Shown here piece by piece: positions 20,910 through 32,000 of a stretch of 32,000 bases of DNA. Source of the DNA: Candidatus Iainarchaeum sp. Its GTDB lineage: Archaea > Iainarchaeota > Iainarchaeia > Iainarchaeales > VGJJ01. Each line of letters opens with the position of its first letter. The first letter of the stretch is position 1. The notes under the pieces were generated by a model, which was given only the letters and a program-made list of their open reading frames with translations, was not told the origin of the DNA and made no database searches. The stretch lies in NCBI GenBank assembly GCA_030688545.1, contig JAUYHT010000001.1, forward strand, positions 30,001 to 62,000, written 5' to 3'. Both the position numbers and the translations under genes were made by a program.

Positions 20910-20959
20910 ATCCAGCGGTAGGATCTGGAGATATAAAATAGTATATGCCTTTACTCGAT

Positions 20960-22096
20960 ATGCCTTCTCCCTTTTCTCTTGCCCATGAAGATGGGCAAGC
21001 TTCTGCGCGTGCAGGGAAATTGAATCTCTCCCATGGGAAGGTCGAAACCCCTTTTTTCATGCCCGTGGCCACCAAAGGAAGCGTGAAGCACCTCACTATC
21101 AACGAAGCCTCCCAGATAGGTTACCGGTGCCTGATTGCCAATGCCTTCATATTCTATCTCCGCCCCGGCCTGGACGTGGTTGAGCGAGCGGGGGGTATTC
21201 ATTCGTTCATGGGTTGGAAGCACAACCTTTTCACCGATTCCGGGGGTTTCCAAATCCTGGACGAAGGGTTTCTCCGCGCCCGCACGGAAGAGGGGGTGGT
21301 GCTCAACAATCCCTTCACCAAAAAGCCGGACTTGTTTACTCCCGAGCGATGCATGGAGGTACAAATGCGTTTGGGCAGCGATGTGGCCATGTGTCTGGAT
21401 GATGTTCCCCGGTTTGGGGAGGATAAGGGTAAACCGTTTTATGCGGAAACACTCCAGCGAACGTTGCAGTGGGCCCAGCGCTGTCGTTCCTCGCATGAAT
21501 CCAAGAAACAGTTGTTGTTTGGTATTTCTCAGGGTGGAACTTTTTTGGATTTGCGAAAAAAGGGTTTAGACTCTTTGAAAGAAATGGGTTTCGACGGGAT
21601 GGCTTTGGGGGGCCTCGCCATCGGCGAACCCAAACCCACGATGCAACGCATTATATCCCTGGGTAGAAAAACCATTTCGGCGGATATGCCCCTCTACGTG
21701 ATGGGGTTGGGTACTCCAGAAGATATCATCCAGGCCATTTCAAATGGGGCAGACATTTTCGATTCGGCATTTCCAACCCGAACCGCCCGTCATGGCCTCG
21801 CCCTCACTTCCAGTGGAAGGATTTCTATCCGCCATTCCAAGTACGCTTCCGATTTTTCCCCACTTGATTTGGATTGTTCATGCCTCATCTGCCATTCCCA
21901 TTCTCGCGCTTTCCTGCACCATCTTTCAAAAAATAATGAGGAGTCCGGCGCCCGTTTCTTAACGCATCATAATCTCGCGTTCCTCCAGCGCACCCTGGAA
22001 GAGGCCCGCACGGCTATTCGTGAAAACGAATTCCATTCCTTTGCCACGCAATTCCTCCAATCCTTCCACTCTGGGCAGGTGCCCTCACAGTTATAA
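20960..22096 (+). CDS. tgt: tRNA-guanine transglycosylase, catalytic domain only (no C-terminal PUA-type domains)
   Basis: The ORF track starts at 20945. I prefer ATG 20960 because the shared TATA (20931-20940) is centred about 25 nt upstream of it, and the N-terminal length then matches TGTs. Motifs are VETPFFMPVATKG, catalytic TDSGGFQI, GLAIGE and the zinc site CSCLICHSHSRAFLHHL. Confidence 0.85.
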   Translation: MPSPFSLAHEDGQASARAGKLNLSHGKVETPFFMPVATKGSVKHLTINEASQIGYRCLIANAFIFYLRPGLDVVERAGGIHSFMGWKHNLFTDSGGFQILDEGFLRARTEEGVVLNNPFTKKPDLFTPERCMEVQMRLGSDVAMCLDDVPRFGEDKGKPFYAETLQRTLQWAQRCRSSHESKKQLLFGISQGGTFLDLRKKGLDSLKEMGFDGMALGGLAIGEPKPTMQRIISLGRKTISADMPLYVMGLGTPEDIIQAISNGADIFDSAFPTRTARHGLALTSSGRISIRHSKYASDFSPLDLDCSCLICHSHSRAFLHHLSKNNEESGARFLTHHNLAFLQRTLEEARTAIRENEFHSFATQFLQSFHSGQVPSQL

Positions 22097-24039: not shown

Positions 24040-24420
24040 ATGGCCAAACCCTTTTTCATGAAGCTCGTGGTGTATGCCCCCAAAACGCATGTTGATCCTA
24101 TTCTCGAGGCATTGCATCAGACTGGTTGCGGGAAATCAGACGGCGGCAAATACGAAGGACGCGCCTTCCTCACATTCGGACATGGCACATGGATCGCGCT
24201 CAAGGGGAGTAAGCCTTTCAAAGGGCGTCTCAACCGTCGCGAAATGGTTCAGGAAGTCCGGATCGAGACCACGTGTCCCAAAGAAAAATCGGCAGACATC
24301 CTCCGCATCATCCGATCAATTCATCCCTATGAAGAACCCGTGATTGAAATCTATTCCTTGGACGCCGTTTCCAATGCGGCCCCCCTCAAGGCAGGGGCCA
24401 AAGTTCTCCGGTACAAGTAG
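24040..24420 (+). CDS. COG3323-type protein (stand-alone homologue of the Nif3/YqfO C-terminal PII-like domain)
   Basis: The true start is ATG 24040, with GGTGA overlapping the upstream stop. The pattern is KLVVYAPKTHVDPILEALHQTGCG...FKG...EVRIETTCPKE...IIRSIHPYEEPVIEIY. Confidence 0.6.
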   Translation: MAKPFFMKLVVYAPKTHVDPILEALHQTGCGKSDGGKYEGRAFLTFGHGTWIALKGSKPFKGRLNRREMVQEVRIETTCPKEKSADILRIIRSIHPYEEPVIEIYSLDAVSNAAPLKAGAKVLRYK

Positions 24421-24422
24421 CG

Positions 24423-24513
24423 GAAACTTTTTACAAAAAAGTTTCATCAAAACAAACTTTTTAGGAAAAAGTTTGATCAAAAAATCTTTTTACAAAAAAG
24501 TTTCATCAAAAAA
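24423..24513. repeat. Tandem array of three ~30-bp hairpin units
   Basis: Unit 1 is GAAACTTTTTACAAAAAAGTTTC-ATCAAAA, unit 2 is CAAACTTTTTAGGAAAAAGTTTG-ATCAAAAAA, and unit 3 is (AAA)TCTTTTTACAAAAAAGTTTC-ATCAAAAAA. The closing pairs change in a compensatory way between units. Confidence 0.7.
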
Positions 24514-24572: not shown

Positions 24573-24663
24573 TAGGCCGAATGAGATTCTTTGTACTAAA
24601 GTGATGCCCCGCCTTTCAGCCGGGAAGGTCTTCGTTTATATTGGATATTACTCCTCTCAACCT

Positions 24664-25374
24664 ATGCCGGCAAAAGGGTGGGGGTCTCGGTGGGCGAATA
24701 AAGCCAGGCTCCTTGGCCGCGGAATGCTTCCAAAAAGAGTGGGGAAAGAAATGCATCGCGCGATATTGCGCTGGAGCGGGAGGGATGTTTCCCGACATGA
24801 TAAGGCTCGAAAGATTGTTCAACGCCAGGATCCGGGAGCTATTTTATTGCGGGAAAATTTCAGAAAACATGCTTCTGAATCAGTAGAAGCAATGTCCCCT
24901 GCCCGCGAGCTGGTAGAAGAAAGGAAAAAATTGACTGACAAAATAGAAGGTATAACAAATGCCCTTTCATCCATGAGAGGAGGTACCGACGTTTATAGAG
25001 AAAGGCTATCGGAACTTCAACGATCAGTGCAAAAAAAAAATAATATTAATCGGCAAATCAGAGAATTAACGCAACCCTTTTTCCATCTTACGTATGAGTA
25101 CTCGGCGAGAATGGAAGCGGCTCATCTGGCGCTCGATTGGATGGGGTTCGGGTTCCAAAAACCGGCGCATCAGGTCATCCGCGAATCTATAATCACACAG
25201 GCGCCTCATTTGTTCGCCCAAGATCCCTTCCAATCCACACACAAAATCGACAAACGCGTGGTGGCGGCTTCCCGATTACAGAGTATCAAACGACTGATTC
25301 CCATCCTAGGCCCTCTCGGGGCGCGCCGTTTCTACCGGCGTTTCCAGAAATTCTATTCCGTGCTGGCCCAATGA
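24664..25374 (+). CDS. Uncharacterised basic protein, paralogue 1 of a PLxARxF-motif family
   Basis: The ORF track starts at GTG 24601. ATG 24664 (MPAKGWG) lies about 25 nt downstream of the centre of TATA TTTATATT (24635-24642). It is Arg/Lys-rich with a central helical heptad-like stretch, and its C-terminus is LIPILGPLGARRFYRRFQKFYSVL. Confidence 0.55.
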   Translation: MPAKGWGSRWANKARLLGRGMLPKRVGKEMHRAILRWSGRDVSRHDKARKIVQRQDPGAILLRENFRKHASESVEAMSPARELVEERKKLTDKIEGITNALSSMRGGTDVYRERLSELQRSVQKKNNINRQIRELTQPFFHLTYEYSARMEAAHLALDWMGFGFQKPAHQVIRESIITQAPHLFAQDPFQSTHKIDKRVVAASRLQSIKRLIPILGPLGARRFYRRFQKFYSVLAQ

Positions 25375-25436
25375 CGAAACGAAAAAAATAATTTAAAAAA
25401 AGGAATACATCGGCTTCCGCCGGTGATAAAAAGGAT

Positions 25437-25628
25437 TTATTTCTCTATTTGGTTTCTATTCCTTTGAGACACCACAAACCCACCCGCCAGCAACACGCTG
25501 TATAGAATGAATGGCATGACGGTTATCAACACTTCCAAATTCGGTAAAGGATTCGAGGCGGTGATTTCCATCCGAATGGGCGCCGCGCTCACGCTCGCGA
25601 TGAACGCGAACAGGAACAGCCCCACCAA
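25437..25628 (-). CDS. Possible small membrane protein (63 aa, TTG start)
   Basis: There are two hydrophobic segments (VGLFLFAFIASVSA and VMPFILYSVLLAGGFVV). It has a non-ATG start and I saw no clear promoter or RBS. Confidence 0.3.
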   Translation of the reverse strand: MVGLFLFAFIASVSAAPIRMEITASNPLPNLEVLITVMPFILYSVLLAGGFVVSQRNRNQIEK

Positions 25629-25652
25629 AGCTGGGTCAAATTAGCCTCTCAT

Positions 25653-26240
25653 GTGAAAAAGCCCGTGATTCCCATGGAAGAACGCCGACGAATGAAATTG
25701 GATGCCATTCAATCCACCAAACGCGTGATGCGGGATGATCGTCATGTAACGGCTACCAGATTGGCGGAATTACGTAGTGAGATCAATCAGATACGTTGGG
25801 ATTCTCCCAGTGAAGCAATACGCCTTTCGCGGTTAAACACCTTCATCTCGGATGTCCGAGATCGTCTCGCAATGATAACCGCGGAAAGACGTGGAAGGGT
25901 CCAGGCCCATTACACCGTCGCGGCAAGGCATGGAGCTGCGTTGCAGGCAATCTCCATGCTTCCCCAATCGGCTCGCGAAAAAATCAATGAAATAGGACTA
26001 CTCGAACTATCTGAGATCATTTTCATCCCGGAAAAATACAATGGAGAATTGTTCACGTCACCAATTCCTACTCCGCGTTCCCACCGTGATTATGAGGGTA
26101 AATCTCCCCGCCAGATTCGTAGGATCGTTCTCGATAGGCTCCGACCCTATTTCAAACCGTTGGAGGCCCGATTATTCCTCTTCCATTTTTACCGCTATTT
26201 CCGCGCGTACACCACTCCTATTAGAAAACGCCGTCAGTAG
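25653..26240 (+). CDS. Uncharacterised basic protein, paralogue 2 of the PLxARxF-motif family
   Basis: 195 aa from GTG 25653 (alternative ATG 25674). Its C-terminus is LRPYFKPLEARLFLFHFYRYFRAY. It overlaps the 3-prime end of the convergent CMD gene by 7 nt. Confidence 0.5.
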   Translation: MKKPVIPMEERRRMKLDAIQSTKRVMRDDRHVTATRLAELRSEINQIRWDSPSEAIRLSRLNTFISDVRDRLAMITAERRGRVQAHYTVAARHGAALQAISMLPQSAREKINEIGLLELSEIIFIPEKYNGELFTSPIPTPRSHRDYEGKSPRQIRRIVLDRLRPYFKPLEARLFLFHFYRYFRAYTTPIRKRRQ

Positions 26241-26548
26241 TGCTCGAGCGCCTTGATCCCATAGGATATGGTCGACCCAGCTTTCACAACAGTTGCCACC
26301 TGGATGACTTCGGTGACTTCCTGCTCCGTGGCCCCATAGGCCTTGGCTTTCTGCGCGTGGGAATCGATGCAGTATTCGCATTGGATGGCGCATGACGCCC
26401 CCAAGGCGATCAATTCCTTCGTCTTCTTATCCAGGGCCCCCGCGGCCATCGCGGCATTCTTCCATGCGGCATAGGCCTGGCTGGATTGGGCCAGTTGCTT
26501 GAATTTCTCGGAAGCTTTCATATAATTTTCATAGAATAATTCGCTCAT
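26234..26548 (-). CDS. Carboxymuconolactone decarboxylase (CMD)/AhpD-like CxxC protein
   Basis: The true start is ATG 26548 (MSELFYENY), with GGTGA about 10 nt upstream. The AhpD-core pattern is LDKKTKELIALGASCAIQCEYCIDSH. The longer track ORF (to 26719) has no support. Confidence 0.8.
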   Translation of the reverse strand: MSELFYENYMKASEKFKQLAQSSQAYAAWKNAAMAAGALDKKTKELIALGASCAIQCEYCIDSHAQKAKAYGATEQEVTEVIQVATVVKAGSTISYGIKALEHY

Positions 26549-26639
26549 GTTTAGATTCACCTTCTGGCTCAACTCAATTCCTCTTTTTATGGGTGCCTTT
26601 GAGCAAGGGTATTTATGGGCCTGACAGGTTAGAAAGAAC

Positions 26640-27329
26640 ATGCCTCCCAAACGTATTCGGACTATGAAGAAGATTGCTTCCCTCCCTCGTTTAGTTAGGG
26701 GAAAAATAGGTGAATACATACTTCGAAGGGAATCACGAAAAATGGGGAAGTCCTTTCAGCGAAAAGATATGCGTTTTTACCTAACAGCAGCCGGGCTCGA
26801 TAGTCTAGCCCAAAAAGAAGCTTTAACCCAGTATCATATTTTTAAAAATCGCTATTTTAAGAGGCGTTACATCAACAGGTTGCAGTCCGACCCCATTTTT
26901 TCCTTTGATGCGTCGCATGATCCAGCTGGGTCTAATCGTTTAATTCGCGCGGCGGCAAACGCCCAAATGAGAATTAATAGGGCCCGAAATCGAGCCCGGC
27001 GATTACGGTTTAGAAAGGATGTCATTACGGTCGCGGTAGAGGAAGCCTTTCGTTCGATTGGCGCATCAGCCCAAATATCACAAGACCTGGCCTCATATGG
27101 CAGGTTAATAGAATTGGTTCCTCGTTTTCCTTTGCCCTTCCATCCTCGGATTGGAACCACAATCGAAGAGGTCATTCTCCCGTCTAAAAAAATGAAATAT
27201 GACCTGTATTCCCTTCTTCGGACCGAGATGAAAAGTCAATTCTCTCCATTACGCGCCAGGGCATTCGTAAACGCTTTTTATTTGATCTATATTTCATTGA
27301 TGAGAGAAGTGGTAACTCGCGACTCTTAA
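26640..27329 (+). CDS. Uncharacterised basic protein, paralogue 3 of the PLxARxF-motif family
   Basis: 229 aa beginning MPPKRIR. TATA TATTTATG (26610-26617) is centred about 26 nt upstream. The C-terminus is MKSQFSPLRARAFVNAFYLIYISL. Confidence 0.55.
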   Translation: MPPKRIRTMKKIASLPRLVRGKIGEYILRRESRKMGKSFQRKDMRFYLTAAGLDSLAQKEALTQYHIFKNRYFKRRYINRLQSDPIFSFDASHDPAGSNRLIRAAANAQMRINRARNRARRLRFRKDVITVAVEEAFRSIGASAQISQDLASYGRLIELVPRFPLPFHPRIGTTIEEVILPSKKMKYDLYSLLRTEMKSQFSPLRARAFVNAFYLIYISLMREVVTRDS

Positions 27330-27335
27330 TTTATT

Positions 27336-27369
27336 AAAAAAAAATAGGGGGGGATTCTCCCCCCCTTTT
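27336..27369. terminator. Bidirectional hairpin terminator between convergent genes
   Basis: A9, then G7 (27347-27353), loop ATTCT, C7 (27359-27365), then T4. Either strand therefore reads as a GC stem followed by a T-run. It lies between the stops at 27329 (+) and 27375 (-). Confidence 0.65.
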
Positions 27370-27374
27370 AATTT

Positions 27375-29864
27375 TCATTCCTCGAGATCTTCGATCCCAT
27401 TCTCGGTGACCGCGTACACGGCTTCCCCATCGGGCAATGAGGGGGAATCCACGAGCTTGGCGATGCGCTTGTTCTCTTTTCCCTTGCGCAGATATAGCCG
27501 CGTCTTGCTCGCGTGCGCCACTACATTTCCCCCTACGGGAGCAGTGGGGTCGCCGAACATGATGTCCGGTCGTTCCAGCACCTGGTTGGTTACGAGTACC
27601 GCGACATTGCTCACCTCGGCGAGCCTTTGGAGCACGCGCATGTGCTTGTTCAGGCGTTGCTGCCGGTCCGCGAGCTGTCCGCGTCCGATGAATTCGCTCC
27701 TGAATTGCGCGGTGAGGGAGTCGACAATAACCATCTTGATGTTCTTCTCCTTCACCAGGTCCGCGGCCTTCTCCGCGAGGAGCATCTGGTGGTCGGCGTT
27801 GTAGGCGCGGGCCACGAATATTTTCTTGAGCGCCTCCTGGGCGTCCATTCCATTGGCCTCCGCGATCGCCGTCACCCTTTCGGGTCGGAATGAATTCTCA
27901 GAATCGATGTAGAGGCAATTCCCATTCAACCCTCCTTCCTCGATGGGTTTCTGCACTGTCACCGCGGTCTGGAAGCACCATTGGGTGTTGTGCATGAACA
28001 ATGGTTTTTCCCCCCCGATGAAACTATGGATGCCGGGGACGGTCAAATCGTACACCCAATTGTCATAGGAGACCTTTTTCTTGGATTCGATCCGTTCCCA
28101 TTTTATTTTTCCTTCAGCAAGCGTCCGGAGGATCTTCAAGTCCTGTAGCAATTGCGCATCGGCCACTCTCTTTTGGATCATCCCCCTCAAAACCACTCCT
28201 ATCTGTTGGGCCTTTTGGTCATTCATACCGCGGGAGATGTAATTCTGGAACGTGCTTTTTTTGATCCCCATTTCGGAATAGATTTCGTCTGTCCGGAAAG
28301 GGAGCAACGCCAATGCATCCATCACATTTCCGGGCGTCGGATGAGTCAACAATTCGAATGCGTTCCCCATCTCTTCCAACCGTTGCTTGAAGAACCAGTT
28401 TATTTTCTGCACGGTTTCTTCGGCTGTCCCATCATTCCGTGACGTGGTTGAAAAGTACATCTGCCAGATGGTCTTGAACTCGCTCTGCAGGATGTTTTTC
28501 TTACTCCATTGGTTGAAACGTCGTCGCGAGCCGCTCAATTGGAAATAGGCCCTTTTCACGATCTGGTCGAGCGCGTGGGTGGGAATCCCATAATGCGTCC
28601 CGATATTCTGGTCATTCAACTGCGTATTGGTTTTCAGATGGCTTCTTTCAAGCAATCGCTTGACTTTTTGCTTGCTTTTGGTGTCGGTGACATACACCAA
28701 GTATTGGGGCTTTCCTTCCACTATCCTTACTCCCGTGGTGGCCTGGATCCCTAATCGTGCATACAAATACGTAATCTGATGGTTGAGGGTTTTGGAGCGG
28801 GTGGACGTGGTGATGGTTTTATGGGCTTCCCCGTCCCCGTCAATGTACCCCCTCAGGAAGGCGGCCACGGCCCCATCGTCTGATTGCAACACCTTTTCAG
28901 GCACGAATTTGGTGTAGGAATCCGTGCGAGCCAATCCCTGCATCCATTCCCGAGTTGGTTTTTGGAAAATGATGAGGTTTTTGTCATAATTGACCGACGG
29001 GGTGTACCCGAATCGGGTTTGAATGAATCCTTTCAGCCAATTGAGTGTTCTTTCATCGAAGATGGTGATGCTCAGGGGGTTTCCGCACCCTTCTGCCACG
29101 AACAATCCAAGGAAATAGGCTTCATCTTCCGTCAGGGTTAGTTTTCCCACGTTTTGGATGATACCGGGGGCCCCGATGTAATCTCCTTCTTCCAATAGCC
29201 CGGTCGATTTCCACTGGATCCCATTCTCATTTAATGTAAGTAATGGATGCTGTTGGGTCAATCGCACGGTGTTTCCCCGGTTGGTCGTCACCTCGACCAA
29301 TTCAGATACTTTTTCTTTGAATAGGTATTGCGCTTGGGCCGTTTGGATGTTCCCATCCAAATCGATTCCCATCACCTGCACGGGATGGTTCAAGTCGGCC
29401 AAAAACCCGCCATCATGCGCCCGTTCATTGATGGCATATTTTTGATACACCTCTTCCATGGAATCCAGGTGGGGCACATCGGGATTCAGATAGAATAAGG
29501 GAGTGGTCTTCTCCACGCATTTCCCAGAAGCGAATTTTCCATAAATCTCGGTGATGGACTGGGTTTCAATCCCGCCCCCGATCAGCTTATCCAGCTCGGC
29601 AGAGCCGGTGGTGATTCTTCCCACCAGTTTCCGTCTTTCCGCGAGGATGTCCGCGCTCTCATAGCCCATCTCGAGGGCGTCCCGTGCGGCTTTGATGGCC
29701 TTATCCGCGGTCCCTTCCCCCAGACTAGCGGCTTCAATCAATTCCATGGGCGAGGCCACGGCCACGCTCTCTAACGTTTTATATCCGGCGGAAAACAGCT
29801 TTTCCGCGGCGAGGGGCCCTATTCCGGGCAAATCTTTAATTTCTCGAATCTCTACTTTTGGCAT
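27375..29864 (-). CDS. radA: DNA repair and recombination protein RadA, interrupted by an intein in the Walker A motif
   Basis: The N-terminal HhH domain is MPKVEIREIKDLPGIGPLAAEKLFSAGY. The P-loop is split as GKFASGK / intein / TQWCFQ. The C-extein carries LYIDSENSFRPERV, the Walker B MVIVDSL and VLVTNQV. The longest ORF extends to GTG 29936, but ATG 29864 gives the canonical RadA N-terminus. Confidence 0.9.
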   Translation of the reverse strand: MPKVEIREIKDLPGIGPLAAEKLFSAGYKTLESVAVASPMELIEAASLGEGTADKAIKAARDALEMGYESADILAERRKLVGRITTGSAELDKLIGGGIETQSITEIYGKFASGKCVEKTTPLFYLNPDVPHLDSMEEVYQKYAINERAHDGGFLADLNHPVQVMGIDLDGNIQTAQAQYLFKEKVSELVEVTTNRGNTVRLTQQHPLLTLNENGIQWKSTGLLEEGDYIGAPGIIQNVGKLTLTEDEAYFLGLFVAEGCGNPLSITIFDERTLNWLKGFIQTRFGYTPSVNYDKNLIIFQKPTREWMQGLARTDSYTKFVPEKVLQSDDGAVAAFLRGYIDGDGEAHKTITTSTRSKTLNHQITYLYARLGIQATTGVRIVEGKPQYLVYVTDTKSKQKVKRLLERSHLKTNTQLNDQNIGTHYGIPTHALDQIVKRAYFQLSGSRRRFNQWSKKNILQSEFKTIWQMYFSTTSRNDGTAEETVQKINWFFKQRLEEMGNAFELLTHPTPGNVMDALALLPFRTDEIYSEMGIKKSTFQNYISRGMNDQKAQQIGVVLRGMIQKRVADAQLLQDLKILRTLAEGKIKWERIESKKKVSYDNWVYDLTVPGIHSFIGGEKPLFMHNTQWCFQTAVTVQKPIEEGGLNGNCLYIDSENSFRPERVTAIAEANGMDAQEALKKIFVARAYNADHQMLLAEKAADLVKEKNIKMVIVDSLTAQFRSEFIGRGQLADRQQRLNKHMRVLQRLAEVSNVAVLVTNQVLERPDIMFGDPTAPVGGNVVAHASKTRLYLRKGKENKRIAKLVDSPSLPDGEAVYAVTENGIEDLEE
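27987..29519 (-). mobile_element. RadA intein (511 aa) with a LAGLIDADG homing-endonuclease domain
   Basis: Cys1 is encoded by the codon at 29517-29519 (CVEKTT). Block B is TVRLTQQHPLL. The two LAGLIDADG motifs are YFLGLFVAEGCG and AAFLRGYIDGDGEA. The C-terminus is PLFMHN, followed by the +1 Thr (codon 27984-27986). The length is exactly 1533 nt, in frame. Confidence 0.85.
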
Positions 29865-30234
29865 ACTTTTCCCATCCTGCCTCTTTTTTGGGTACGATTT
29901 GAGAAGCCGGCGTTTGGGGTGCCGCTTCCCTTGCACCTAATGAGACATCCAACATATCGTTGACCCGCTTAAAAAGCTTATGAGACCAAAGTTCCGAGGT
30001 CGTCGAACGGCTTCCATTGAAATCTTTTGTAAAAAACCCAAATAGGGCATTCATCCCATTCGGGCTGGGTGACAATCTCTTGTGGTGGGCCTTGAGATGG
30101 GCCGCAACACCTAATATTTGGAAATAAGCTGCAGAGGCATTGGCTCACCAAGCAGTTCTACCCACCCTTATTTTTTAGCGCTTGGTATCCGTATCCCGTC
30201 CGGATTTCCTGGAATTATTCGGTCGTCAGTTTGA

Positions 30235-30249
30235 ATGCCCCGAGCGGGA
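30235..30249. repeat. 15-bp direct repeat, left copy (matches the 3-prime end of the tRNA fragment at 31436-31470)
   Basis: ATGCCCCGAGCGGGA is identical to 31435-31449, exactly 1200 bp away. Confidence 0.7.
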
Positions 30250-30392
30250 CATGGGCCTTCTATTACAACTTGCTCTGCGATTGAAACCCTTGGATGATAC
30301 CTTAAAGTATGTACCCAATATTTATTCTATATCCTTCACTCAGGCCAAGGTGGCAGAACTCCTTAAATGCATAAAGGGAAAACAATCATAGT

Positions 30393-31325
30393 ATGCCAAA
30401 TGAAATAATCATAACTTGTTGCAAGGATCCTGATCTGGACGGTTTCGCCAGTGCAATCGGATATGCTGAGTTGTTGAGCAAAACTGGCACACCAACAATA
30501 CCTTGGATTTCCGGGAATGTCCATCCAGAGGTTCATTTTGTCATGAAAAAATTCGATTTCCCATACCCCGTAGAAACCACCAATCCTGAAAATTTTGCTC
30601 AGTTTGTGCTGGTCGATTCCAGCGAATTGAATGGATTGGATAAACGCATCAAACCAGAAAACGTGATAGAGATCATCGACCACCGAAAAATCAATGATTC
30701 ACATCTCTTTCCAAATGCCAAAATCCAAATCGAATTGGTAGGCTCCGCTGCCACCCTCATTACTGAAAAGTTCAAAGAAAAACAAGTTACTCCTTCCGCG
30801 AAGGCTGCTGCACTGTTGTATTCCGCGATTGTATCCAATACATTAAATTTCAAGGCAAAAGTAACTACTCAGCGTGATATGGCAATGGCTGAATGGCTCC
30901 TCCAGCAATTTCAACTTCCAACAAATTATGTTCATGAAATGTTCGCGGCCAAATCAGACTTGTCAGGAAACAGGCTCCAAAATGGCATCCGGGGAGACTT
31001 CGCATGGTTCGCGCTTGGAAACAAAAAAATTGGAATTGCTCAACTCGAAATCGTTGGGGGAAGTGAACTGGCAAGTAGACGCTCTGACGAAATAATAGAG
31101 GAATTGAGCCAATTAAAGGTTGAGAAAGGACTCGATCTTATTTTCATGTCCATTATTGAACTGGAAGAGGGATTCAACCTATTCATAACCAAAGATCAAG
31201 AAGCTCAAAGAATACTAAGTGAATTATTTGATATCACGTTTAACGATACCATCGCAAAAAGAAATGGTCTTATCATGCGAAAAGAAATTGTACCATTGTT
31301 AAAAGAGAAACTCCAAGCACACTGA
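30393..31325 (+). CDS. DHH/DHHA2 phosphoesterase resembling family II inorganic pyrophosphatase
   Basis: 310 aa. Motif I is KDPDLDGFASAIGY, motif II is VLVDSSE, motif III reads IIDHRK (DHR instead of DHH), and motif IV is the ELVGSAATLI region. The DHHA2-like C-terminus carries IMRKEIVPLL. Length and architecture match PpaC-type enzymes. Confidence 0.75.
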   Translation: MPNEIIITCCKDPDLDGFASAIGYAELLSKTGTPTIPWISGNVHPEVHFVMKKFDFPYPVETTNPENFAQFVLVDSSELNGLDKRIKPENVIEIIDHRKINDSHLFPNAKIQIELVGSAATLITEKFKEKQVTPSAKAAALLYSAIVSNTLNFKAKVTTQRDMAMAEWLLQQFQLPTNYVHEMFAAKSDLSGNRLQNGIRGDFAWFALGNKKIGIAQLEIVGGSELASRRSDEIIEELSQLKVEKGLDLIFMSIIELEEGFNLFITKDQEAQRILSELFDITFNDTIAKRNGLIMRKEIVPLLKEKLQAH

Positions 31326-31434
31326 TGCGGAAATATGACTGTGAAAGAATTTGATGCAAAAATTTGCTGAAGAAGTGGCAGATGTCGATCAAGCGACAGA
31401 ATTATTCCAGAAGGGGCTCTTGCTCCACCACACT

Positions 31435-31449
31435 ATGCCCCGAGCGGGA
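31435..31449. repeat. 15-bp direct repeat, right copy
   Basis: ATGCCCCGAGCGGGA overlaps the acceptor and T-stem 3-prime strands of the tRNA fragment. Confidence 0.7.
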
Positions 31450-31470
31450 TTTGAACCCGCGATTTAGGCA
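31436..31470 (-). pseudogene. Orphan tRNA 3-prime fragment (anticodon-stem 3-prime strand through discriminator); att-site remnant or split-tRNA 3-prime half
   Basis: The minus strand reads TGCCT-AAATC-GCGGG-TTCAAAT-CCCGC-TCGGGGC-A. That is the anticodon-stem 3-prime strand, a 5-nt variable loop, the T arm with a canonical TTCAAAT loop, the acceptor 3-prime strand and the discriminator. No matching 5-prime acceptor strand (GCCCCGA on the minus strand) or D arm lies upstream. Confidence 0.6.
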
Positions 31471-31490
31471 CCACAAAACTTCCTTCTTTA

Positions 31491-31522
31491 TCTGCCTAAA
31501 TTTAGGCAGATGGATTTAAATT
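31491..31522 (+). promoter_or_regulatory. Perfect 20-bp palindrome next to the TATA box of the Fic-like gene
   Basis: TCTGCCTAAATTTAGGCAGA lies at 31491-31510. TATA TTTAAATT (31515-31522) is centred about 25 nt upstream of ATG 31544. Further CTGCCTAAA half-sites lie at 31462-31470 (inverted) and 31530-31538. Confidence 0.5.
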
Positions 31523-31543
31523 ACTTCATCTGCCTAAAATGGT

Positions 31544-32000
31544 ATGGCGCTTCGAATCAAAACTATTGCCGGAAAGCCCTATTATTATCTTCATCTGAGC
31601 TATTTTATTCAAAGTAAGTCCAAAAGTTTCAGCAAGTACGTCGGAACCGAAAAACCCACGCAAAACAATCTCACAAAATTAGAAGGTTCATTCCGGGATG
31701 AAATCATCGAAAAACTGGGAAAACAACTCTTTGCGAATGAAAACATTTCAAAGGACGATGTCATCAAGACGTTCCTTTTCCGTGACGCATTCAATGAGAA
31801 ATACAAAAAACTCTCACCGGTTGAACGAAAAAATTTCGAAGTCAACCGCACCATCCTTTTTACTTTAACCACACTTACAACTGAAGACGTGGACGTGGAT
31901 TTGAACGACGTGATGGCAGCCTACCAAAAAGAGGCAAAACTGGATGCGCGTGAAACAATCAGCAAAAACATGCTCGAAGGGGTAGCTAAAATCAAAGAGT
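31544..32000 (+). CDS. Fic-family-like protein, N-terminal part (runs off the right window edge)
   Basis: It is not in the ORF track because it has no stop in the window. My translation is MALRIKTIAGKPYYYLHLSYFIQSKSKSFSKYVGTEKP...NFEVNRTILFTLTTLTTEDVDVDLNDVMAAY...ISKNMLEGVAKIKE. The G-x-YYYL...KY(V/L)G opening, followed by the helical region that precedes the Fic core, matches my recollection of archaeal Fic proteins. The HxFx(D/E)GNGR motif itself would lie outside the window. Confidence 0.4.
   Translation, partial: MALRIKTIAGKPYYYLHLSYFIQSKSKSFSKYVGTEKPTQNNLTKLEGSFRDEIIEKLGKQLFANENISKDDVIKTFLFRDAFNEKYKKLSPVERKNFEVNRTILFTLTTLTTEDVDVDLNDVMAAYQKEAKLDARETISKNMLEGVAKIKE

Follow-up and report, generated by a model that had tools for sequence, protein, structure and literature searches.

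The window analysed here is a stretch of 32,000 nucleotides (nt) from Candidatus Iainarchaeum sp. (contig JAUYHT010000001.1, positions 30,001 to 62,000), with positions counted from its first letter. A first-pass annotation made from the letters alone had reported three Arg/Lys-rich open reading frames (ORFs) on the plus strand. All three are present, and they encode proteins with an isoelectric point (pI) near 11. We argue below that they are diverged members of an undescribed protein family restricted to one archaeal clade. The genes, and the signature block that each carries close to its C-terminus, are the following.

24664-25374, plus strand: ORF1, 236 amino acids, pI 11.0, of the same type as protein P0005
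25653-26240, plus strand: ORF2, 195 amino acids from a GTG at 25653; the publicly called start, ATG 25674, gives 188 amino acids
26640-27329, plus strand: ORF3, 229 amino acids, pI 11.1, G+C content at third codon positions (GC3) 0.43, the divergent member
25294-25365, plus strand: C-terminal signature block of ORF1, LIPILGPLGARRFYRRFQKFYSVL
26139-26210, plus strand: C-terminal signature block of ORF2, LRPYFKPLEARLFLFHFYRYFRAY
27228-27299, plus strand: C-terminal signature block of ORF3, MKSQFSPLRARAFVNAFYLIYISL

Lysine and arginine account for 19-21% of the residues of these three proteins and aspartate and glutamate for 8-11%, with net charges of +18 to +28. For each ORF the best-scoring of the six frames is the annotated one. 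Codon adaptation is near zero (0.04, 0.06 and -0.02 for ORF1 to ORF3), whereas most confident genes of the window reach 0.2-0.4. Likewise, GC3 is 0.49, 0.50 and 0.43 against 0.57-0.70 in nearly all confident window genes, a DHH gene (30393-31325, GC3 0.40) being the exception. The two minus-strand genes interleaved with the ORFs, one for a short peptide and one for an AhpD/CMD protein, are host-like in this respect (0.67-0.70). Hence, the local AT-richness noticed earlier in the third copy is real but not peculiar to it, since ORF1 and ORF2 are low as well. Low GC3 and near-zero codon adaptation could mean that these ORFs are spurious or foreign DNA, and relatives were therefore sought by synteny.

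Using the AhpD/CMD protein as an anchor in GTDB genomes we found three related loci from 'uncultured archaeon' entries, and p135, the protein encoded upstream of ORF1, served as an anchor to recover six more contigs from metagenomes. A regular expression for a relaxed version of the signature motif had no match in the related loci because the motif is degenerate in the relatives; the members were then located by their position. Together with the contigs of P0004 and P0005, two proteins brought up by the profile scan described below, this gave seven more members, all from related contigs of uncultured archaea.

L004, 11312-11911, minus strand
L005, 3168-3845, minus strand
L006, 695-1273, minus strand
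L084, 255-884, plus strand: P0004 extended upstream
L085, 68-751, plus strand: P0005
L086, 486-1091, plus strand
L089, 5466-6089, plus strand

The ten proteins are similar in length (190-236 codons) and all ten have a pI of 10-11.3. The neighbourhood is common to the seven contigs: (Tgt, CBS protein,) FNR-like reductase, p135 and the member on the same strand, a convergent CMD gene, and radA. In most relatives there is a single copy between p135 and CMD, while the lineage of the window has three. The ORF3-type gene of L084 (42% identity to ORF3) sits between CMD and radA, as in the window. When a profile of the three ORFs was run with HMMER through 1.84 billion representative proteins, the full scan brought up the window proteins themselves, P0004 (E=1e-9) and P0005 (E=1.7e-4), and nothing else. 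In a word-indexed search of 5.8e9 proteins each ORF retrieved itself alone. No tblastn-confirmed relative was found among the viral contigs of IMG/VR, where sub-alignments were scanned. The family is limited to a narrow Diapherotrites-like (DPANN) clade from groundwater and lake metagenomes. It had also been proposed that these genes might be of mobile or host-interaction origin. This idea found no support: the chromosomal position is conserved in all seven related contigs, no terminal repeats or integrase flank the ORFs, and no viral relatives were found.

The relatives also bear on the gene starts. The public calls for ORF1 (P0003, 216 amino acids) and ORF3 (P0001, 186 amino acids) begin at internal Met codons. 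The longer starts (ATG 24664 and ATG 26640), already chosen in the first-pass annotation, are better supported, because an N-terminal MPx[KR] motif and the string LRRES(R/K)KMG are conserved ahead of the public starts. The first of these, in its ORF1 form MPxK..RWA...R..LP, occurs also in the members of L004, L005, L006 and L089; the second is conserved in the ORF3 type.

Within the window the signature itself is confined to these genes. In the six-frame translation of the 32 kb (~64,000 residues) the pattern PL.AR.F occurs three times, where a rough estimate from residue frequencies gives ~0.06. The three occurrences are those of ORF1, ORF2 and ORF3, and in each case the motif lies some 20 residues from the stop codon. 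They are encoded by different synonymous codons (P by CCT/CCG/CCA, L by CTC/TTG/TTA, R by CGC/CGA/AGG), so the identity is kept at the protein level rather than by recent gene conversion. The motif had been called invariant, which is true within this genome and for P0005, the only other protein with an exact PLxARxF, but not across the family: other members have GWLARLF, VLKTKRF, GK-RTYAF or RKRGHDF in its place. What the ten-member alignment retains is the N-terminal motif and, numbered as in ORF1, the residues L211, F223 and A156. Its general plan begins with MPx[KR]..R[WF]A...R..[FL]P, followed by a helical middle, a conserved (Y/F)....AA..A(L)..(L/M)G turn and a variable linker, and ends with a block L.P.LG.L.AR.F..(F/Y)Y..Y that is predicted to form a helix-turn-helix (HTH).

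Are the three ORFs related beyond this motif? Pairwise BLASTP among them is not significant by itself (E 0.02-1.8). The Smith-Waterman score of ORF1 with ORF2 is higher than in any of 500 shuffles (z=4.1; removal of the C-terminal block leaves z=2.7). A hidden Markov model (HMM) built without any window protein, on the members of L004, L005 and L006, picks out ORF1 (1.8e-7) and ORF2 (5e-7) among 10,094 ORFs, the next-best background ORF being at 0.11, and leave-one-out HMMs retrieve ORF1, ORF2 and the member of L005 with values near 1e-6. Profile-profile comparison with hhalign gives P=4e-8 for {ORF1, P0005} against {ORF2, L005 member}, over 136 colinear columns and with a probability of 95%, and P=1.6e-4 over 131 columns for {ORF1, P0005} against the L004, L089 and L086 members. 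It is on the latter value that the link of L086 and L089 to the family rests, as an HMM of eight members missed these two; they were spotted from where they lie and from their C-terminal block, and were aligned afterwards. For the ORF3 type, {ORF3, L084 member} matches the profile of the eight other members with P=8.7e-4 over 104 colinear columns. Significant colinear similarity thus extends beyond the short motif in all three ORFs, which also share the MPx[KR] start and a C-terminal block at a similar distance from the stop. Judged by these alignments, ORF1 and ORF2 are clearly homologous, and ORF3 probably belongs with them at a greater distance, as the weakest link of the family. The earlier description of the three genes as diverged paralogues is borne out to that extent.

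These genes evolve fast. In the same genome pairs the members are 26-42% identical and the flanking proteins 57-96%; together with the confinement of the relatives to one clade, this agrees with the earlier view of a fast-evolving, lineage-specific family. The extreme is L005 versus L006, where the members are 27% identical but p135, CMD and the FNR-like protein are at 95%, 96% and 82%. At the amino-acid level (dN) the family evolves approximately 15-25 times faster than the closest-compared flanking genes. Between ORF3 and its orthologue P0004/L084 the proportions of nonsynonymous (pN) and synonymous (pS) differences are 0.42 and 0.75, and the adjoining RadA segment is 95% identical. In every genome the GC3 of the members is below that of nearly all neighbouring genes, so we regard low GC3 as a trait of the family, reflecting weak codon bias and fast turnover, and not as the trace of a recent transfer.

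One might still speculate that we are dealing with non-functional ORFs, i.e. chance or decaying frames in an AT-richer spacer, or recent mobile or viral cargo. The near-zero codon-usage scores, the GC3 of 0.43-0.50 instead of 0.57-0.70 and the retrieval of nothing but self-matches in the word-indexed search would all fit. Yet, one locus retains, across eight genomes or contigs, ten intact ORFs that resemble one another in length, in charge and in the order of their motifs, nonsynonymous divergence is below synonymous divergence, the HMM and hhalign matches across genomes are significant, the orthologues in every genome share the low GC3, and neither flanking repeats nor an integrase nor viral relatives accompany the genes. 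This explanation is largely refuted and we hold it to be very improbable. From comparative sequence evidence, ORF1, ORF2 and ORF3 are protein-coding genes under selection, because ten intact ORFs occupy a shared locus and pN is lower than pS.

The family could be linked to no described family or fold, and is new in that narrow sense. The first-pass annotation recognised no described domain, and none has appeared in profile libraries, PDB or structure comparisons. Scans of the members with Pfam-A, NCBIfam, PHROGs and PADLOC gave only sub-threshold coiled-coil noise, with best scores far under the cut-offs (HrpB7 19.2 bits versus 29.7; MukB 13.7 versus 699) and no library family matched by more than one of the ten members. 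A family profile searched against all PDB sequences reached E=0.014 at best. Foldseek searches of the ORF1 model against PDB and BFVD returned only generic coiled-coil matches (best E 0.52 and 0.23 respectively, TMq <0.3). None had a TM-score of 0.5 or more, none of the 261 PDB matches reached E<=0.001, and no link emerged to ESCRT-III/PspA, BAR or rod-virus capsid proteins. NCBI annotates the product of ORF2 as a hypothetical protein from a metagenome-assembled genome (MAG) of a Candidatus Diapherotrites archaeon, and the members carry the label 'hypothetical protein' only. The literature search on the family brought up nothing beyond general surveys of dark matter in archaea (PMC9258230, PMC6393860), which focus on broadly conserved families. 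The lineage-specific archaeal and DPANN families of these surveys are also unannotated, confined to one clade and conserved in gene position. But they constitute a category, whereas ours is a single family, more narrowly distributed (5 clusters in 1.84e9 representatives) and faster-evolving.

One candidate identity deserves comment. By eye, the C-terminal block L-I-P-I-L-G-P-L-x-A-R-x-F resembles the L-P-G-I-G-P-x-x-A-x-x-h of helix-hairpin-helix (HhH) motifs, which bind DNA non-specifically, such as HHH_5 of the adjacent RadA. AlphaFold2 (AF2) predicts a helix, a G-P turn and a helix in ORF1, and the central A..L(P/G) turn of ORF2 gives a weak match to the HhH of DprA_N (E=0.084, one member). 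However, the first Gly of the GhG in the pattern hxxhxGhGxxxAxxh is missing from the family block, none of the ten blocks matches any Pfam model at E<=10, and a profile of the block brought up no HhH chain in the PDB. We therefore regard this as a resemblance by eye that gained no support as an identity.

What might these proteins look like? The AF2 model of ORF1, built on a 5-sequence alignment, has an overall predicted local distance difference test score (pLDDT) of 66.9 and a predicted template-modelling score of 0.50. It contains helices at residues 81-103, 109-160, 167-177, 197-215 and 217-235. Block-mean pLDDT is 88-95 over residues 81-130 (about 90 for the hairpin) and 83-88 in the C-terminal helix pair, in which the signature block makes a predicted helix (197-215), a G-P turn and a helix (217-235). 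The model of ORF2 (3 sequences, pLDDT 50) was too poor and was set aside. There are no transmembrane segments or signal peptides among the ten members, and only one Cys in all ten proteins. By thirds of the sequence, the charge is +5 to +17 in the N-terminal part, about neutral in the centre and +2 to +13 in the C-terminal part. The family is thus predicted to be all-alpha, with a basic and poorly ordered N-terminal third, a long near-neutral helical hairpin, a conserved A..A(L)..(L)G turn and a C-terminal HTH.

Our preferred reading, to which we would give about an even chance, is that of an undescribed, clade-limited family of paralogues that act as oligomers on a polyanion. The proteins would be cytoplasmic and would oligomerise through the central helical hairpin. 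Their basic N- and C-terminal parts would contact a polyanion, RNA or DNA being the likeliest, and the last helix would use its aromatic stripe to pack against the bundle or dock a partner. This reading is favoured because the members look like cytoplasmic proteins with basic ends around a neutral helical hairpin. The pattern of the motif, whose exact form is kept within the genome with different codons and drifts in orthologues, further suggests that the paralogues of one genome share one partner or hetero-oligomerise. A more specific scenario is unlikely to be right: that the proteins form a new, rapidly co-evolving class of oligomeric nucleic-acid-binding proteins, associated with the nucleoid or with RNA and born in one Diapherotrites clade, whose paralogues in the three-copy lineage are joined or partnered via the PLxARxF helix. 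Such a link would account for the exact motif within the genome and its drift between orthologues.

Several observations weigh against the preferred reading. No model of a DNA- or RNA-binding domain matches, and an HhH is supported by neither Pfam nor the PDB profiles. The structural model of ORF1, with its five sequences, is of moderate confidence. The redox and tRNA-modification genes nearby give no functional pointer. The membership of ORF3 is weaker than that of ORF1 and ORF2, since a leave-one-out HMM run at default filter settings missed it, and hhalign of {ORF3, L084 member} against single subgroups gives only P of ~0.02 over ~22 columns, restricted to the C-terminal block. Finally, the codon adaptation of ORF1-ORF3 is the weakest in the window. 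Stoichiometric nucleoid or RNA-binding proteins are usually highly expressed and codon-optimised, and values around 0 instead of 0.2-0.4 argue against an abundant chromatin protein.

Two groups of known proteins invite comparison. Alba, Cren7, MC1 and the histones are small basic archaeal chromatin or nucleic-acid-binding proteins. Like our family they are cytoplasmic, strongly basic and lineage-restricted. Yet, they share no sequence or fold similarity with it; the family proteins have 2-3 times their size and are built of helices throughout, with a hairpin of coiled-coil type, and their poor codon adaptation argues against high abundance. ESCRT-III, PspA and Vipp1 are closer in build, being all-alpha proteins of about 200 amino acids with a long helical hairpin at the core. 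But none of them is among the top 50 of the 261 Foldseek matches listed, there is no Pfam match to Snf7 or PspA, and the charge of the C-terminus is opposite, that of the family being basic.

Another possibility is that the proteins are peripheral membrane binders or scaffolds, whose basic-aromatic C-terminal helix lies in the membrane plane, as do the membrane-targeting helices of MinD or FtsA, with a lattice of coiled-coil hairpins beneath. The last helix is indeed rich in Arg/Lys and Phe/Tyr, and the tail of ORF3 shows a fair degree of hydrophobicity (KD19 1.30). In four of the ten members the 18-residue segment around the conserved Phe has a hydrophobic moment of 0.53-0.61, above the 99th percentile of window proteins. 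The moment is, however, ordinary in ORF3 (0.18) and in the L005 member (0.24), AF2 confidently pairs the last two helices and leaves no free amphipathic tail, no member has a transmembrane segment, and Foldseek finds no significant BAR, ESCRT-III or PspA-like fold. Membrane binding therefore seems improbable to us.

Alternatively, the fast divergence might result from an arms race instead of weak constraint, the proteins being involved in genetic conflict, either against viruses or on the host cell of what is probably a symbiont. A divergence far above that of the flanking genes, the increase from one to three copies in one lineage, low codon adaptation and restriction to one clade are all expected from such proteins, and in L088 another insertion, by sequence reading a MazF-like toxin-antitoxin pair, is found downstream of p135. 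But no PADLOC defence model matches consistently, there are no defence genes nearby and no signal peptide or secretion signal, and the gene ends a conserved housekeeping string, outside any variable island. Furthermore, synonymous sites are saturated, so positive selection is not demonstrable. We consider this explanation improbable and retain oligomeric polyanion binding as the preferred one.

If functional, as the evidence indicates, these genes represent a cleanly delimited protein family born and diversifying in a small DPANN clade. A conserved locus, one to three copies, high divergence and a recognisable signature make it usable for studying the origin and retention of new proteins in reduced archaeal genomes, and the analysis corrects two public gene starts, those of ORF1 and ORF3. 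It is nevertheless ordinary archaeal genomic dark matter, if unusually well delimited: archaeal MAGs commonly contain lineage-specific families that are uncharacterised, and the family by itself opens no long-standing question.

The context of the three genes adds the following features.

24040-24420, plus strand: p135, homologous to the insert domain of NIF3 but standing alone, identified with a profile of 4 orthologues against 2gx8
24424-24511, no strand: three tandem palindromic units of ~30 nt, AAACTTTTTACAAAAAAGTTT / AAACTTTTTACAAAAAAGTTTCATCAAAA, the left boundary
24635-24642, plus strand: TATA-like box TTTATATT, read from the sequence, ~26 nt upstream of the ORF1 ATG
25437-25628, minus strand: gene for a 63-amino-acid peptide with two hydrophobic segments, GC3 0.67, convergent with ORF1
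26234-26548, minus strand: AhpD/CMD CxxC protein, 104 amino acids (Pfam CMD 4e-20, NCBIfam AhpD core domain)
26610-26617, plus strand: TATA-like box TATTTATG, read from the sequence, ~26 nt upstream of the ORF3 ATG
27346-27366, no strand: G7/C7 hairpin with T-runs on both strands in the ORF3-radA gap, bidirectional terminator-like

The product of p135 is recognised by neither Pfam nor NCBIfam, but its four-orthologue profile matches residues 160-264 of the NIF3-related PDB entry 2gx8 with E=4e-17. It is strongly conserved (up to 95%) and lies directly upstream of a fast-evolving family gene. The two are adjacent on the same strand in L004, L005, L006, L086 and L089, and in the relatives the member begins 18-33 nt past p135. 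The ancestral state appears to be one copy ending the string Tgt, CBS, FNR-like, p135, member, and abutting the convergent CMD gene and radA. In the lineage of the window ORF1 is severed from p135 by a 243-nt insert with palindromic repeats and a TATA-like box, a spacer found only in this genome. In a contig from the Hainich (L088, 685-1231) the place just downstream of p135 is taken by a small antitoxin-like ORF and a MazF/PemK-like ORF, both assigned by eye, which suggests that this site tolerates insertions.

Both boundaries proposed at first, the array of palindromic hairpins on the left and the G7/C7 hairpin on the right, were found. Each palindromic unit is imperfect, of the form AAACTTTTT-ACA-AAAAAGTTT, with T/A runs on both strands. 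The pattern has 5 matches in the window, with 0 expected by chance, and is absent from all 91 fetched loci. When coordinates are mapped, the end of a contig from an independent Logan assembly falls at about position 24455 of the window, inside the array. The array could be a set of terminators, a site to which a protein binds or a repeat element of small size. The spacing of the TATA-like boxes ahead of ORF1 and ORF3 would be compatible with leaderless transcripts.

The interleaved minus-strand genes are real too. The 63-amino-acid peptide is outside the basic protein family; its gene is also called in a second MAG, and it matched no family in the library scans. The AhpD/CMD protein carries a CEYC motif, and its true extent is likely 26234-26548 rather than that of a 161-amino-acid ORF. 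At the 3' end its gene shares 7 nt with ORF2, and this convergent overlap with a member recurs in L005, L006 and L085 (4-23 nt). In L004 (10312-11279) and L089 (6179-7143) two small ORFs separate the member and CMD, one containing a Gly run and Cys-rich, the other acidic and Pro/Ser-rich. They have hydrophobic N-termini, no Pfam match and no counterpart in the window. The CMD-radA spacer also varies. Where an ORF3-type gene is absent (L004 9750-10004, L085 1068-1277) it holds a very basic ORF of 70-84 amino acids on the CMD strand, without a Pfam match, which ends in ...LNLIAINLG.T.EQVV.AL.R.ARQKK and looks HTH-like by eye. The idea that ORF3 overprinted this small gene was discarded, as no remnant of it lies under ORF3.

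The remaining window is ordinary chromosome, with genes for a KaiC-like ATPase, the SUF system, malic enzyme, GDH, Tgt, a CBS protein, an FNR-like reductase, an intein-containing RadA and a DHH phosphoesterase; it contains no tRNAs and no Rfam matches. Neither Pfam nor NCBIfam supported an HPF-like C-terminus in the CBS protein. Bacterial-type queuosine Tgt is unusual in an archaeon. The Tgt encoded here (20945-22096) scores 391 bits with the corresponding equivalog TIGR00430 (cut-off 306.75) and falls far under the cut-off of the archaeosine TgtA (154.5 versus 350). The radA genes of the window (27375-29936) and of L004 (7016-9508) both contain a LAGLIDADG-type intein, with a product of ~830-850 amino acids. 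The intein is absent from RadA in L005 (1642-2766) and L085 (1371-2255) and is therefore polymorphic within the clade. Towards the right end of the window (30001-32000) the G+C content falls to 40-44%, and the DHH/DHHA2 gene located there has a GC3 of 0.40, so that compositional heterogeneity is not confined to the three ORFs.

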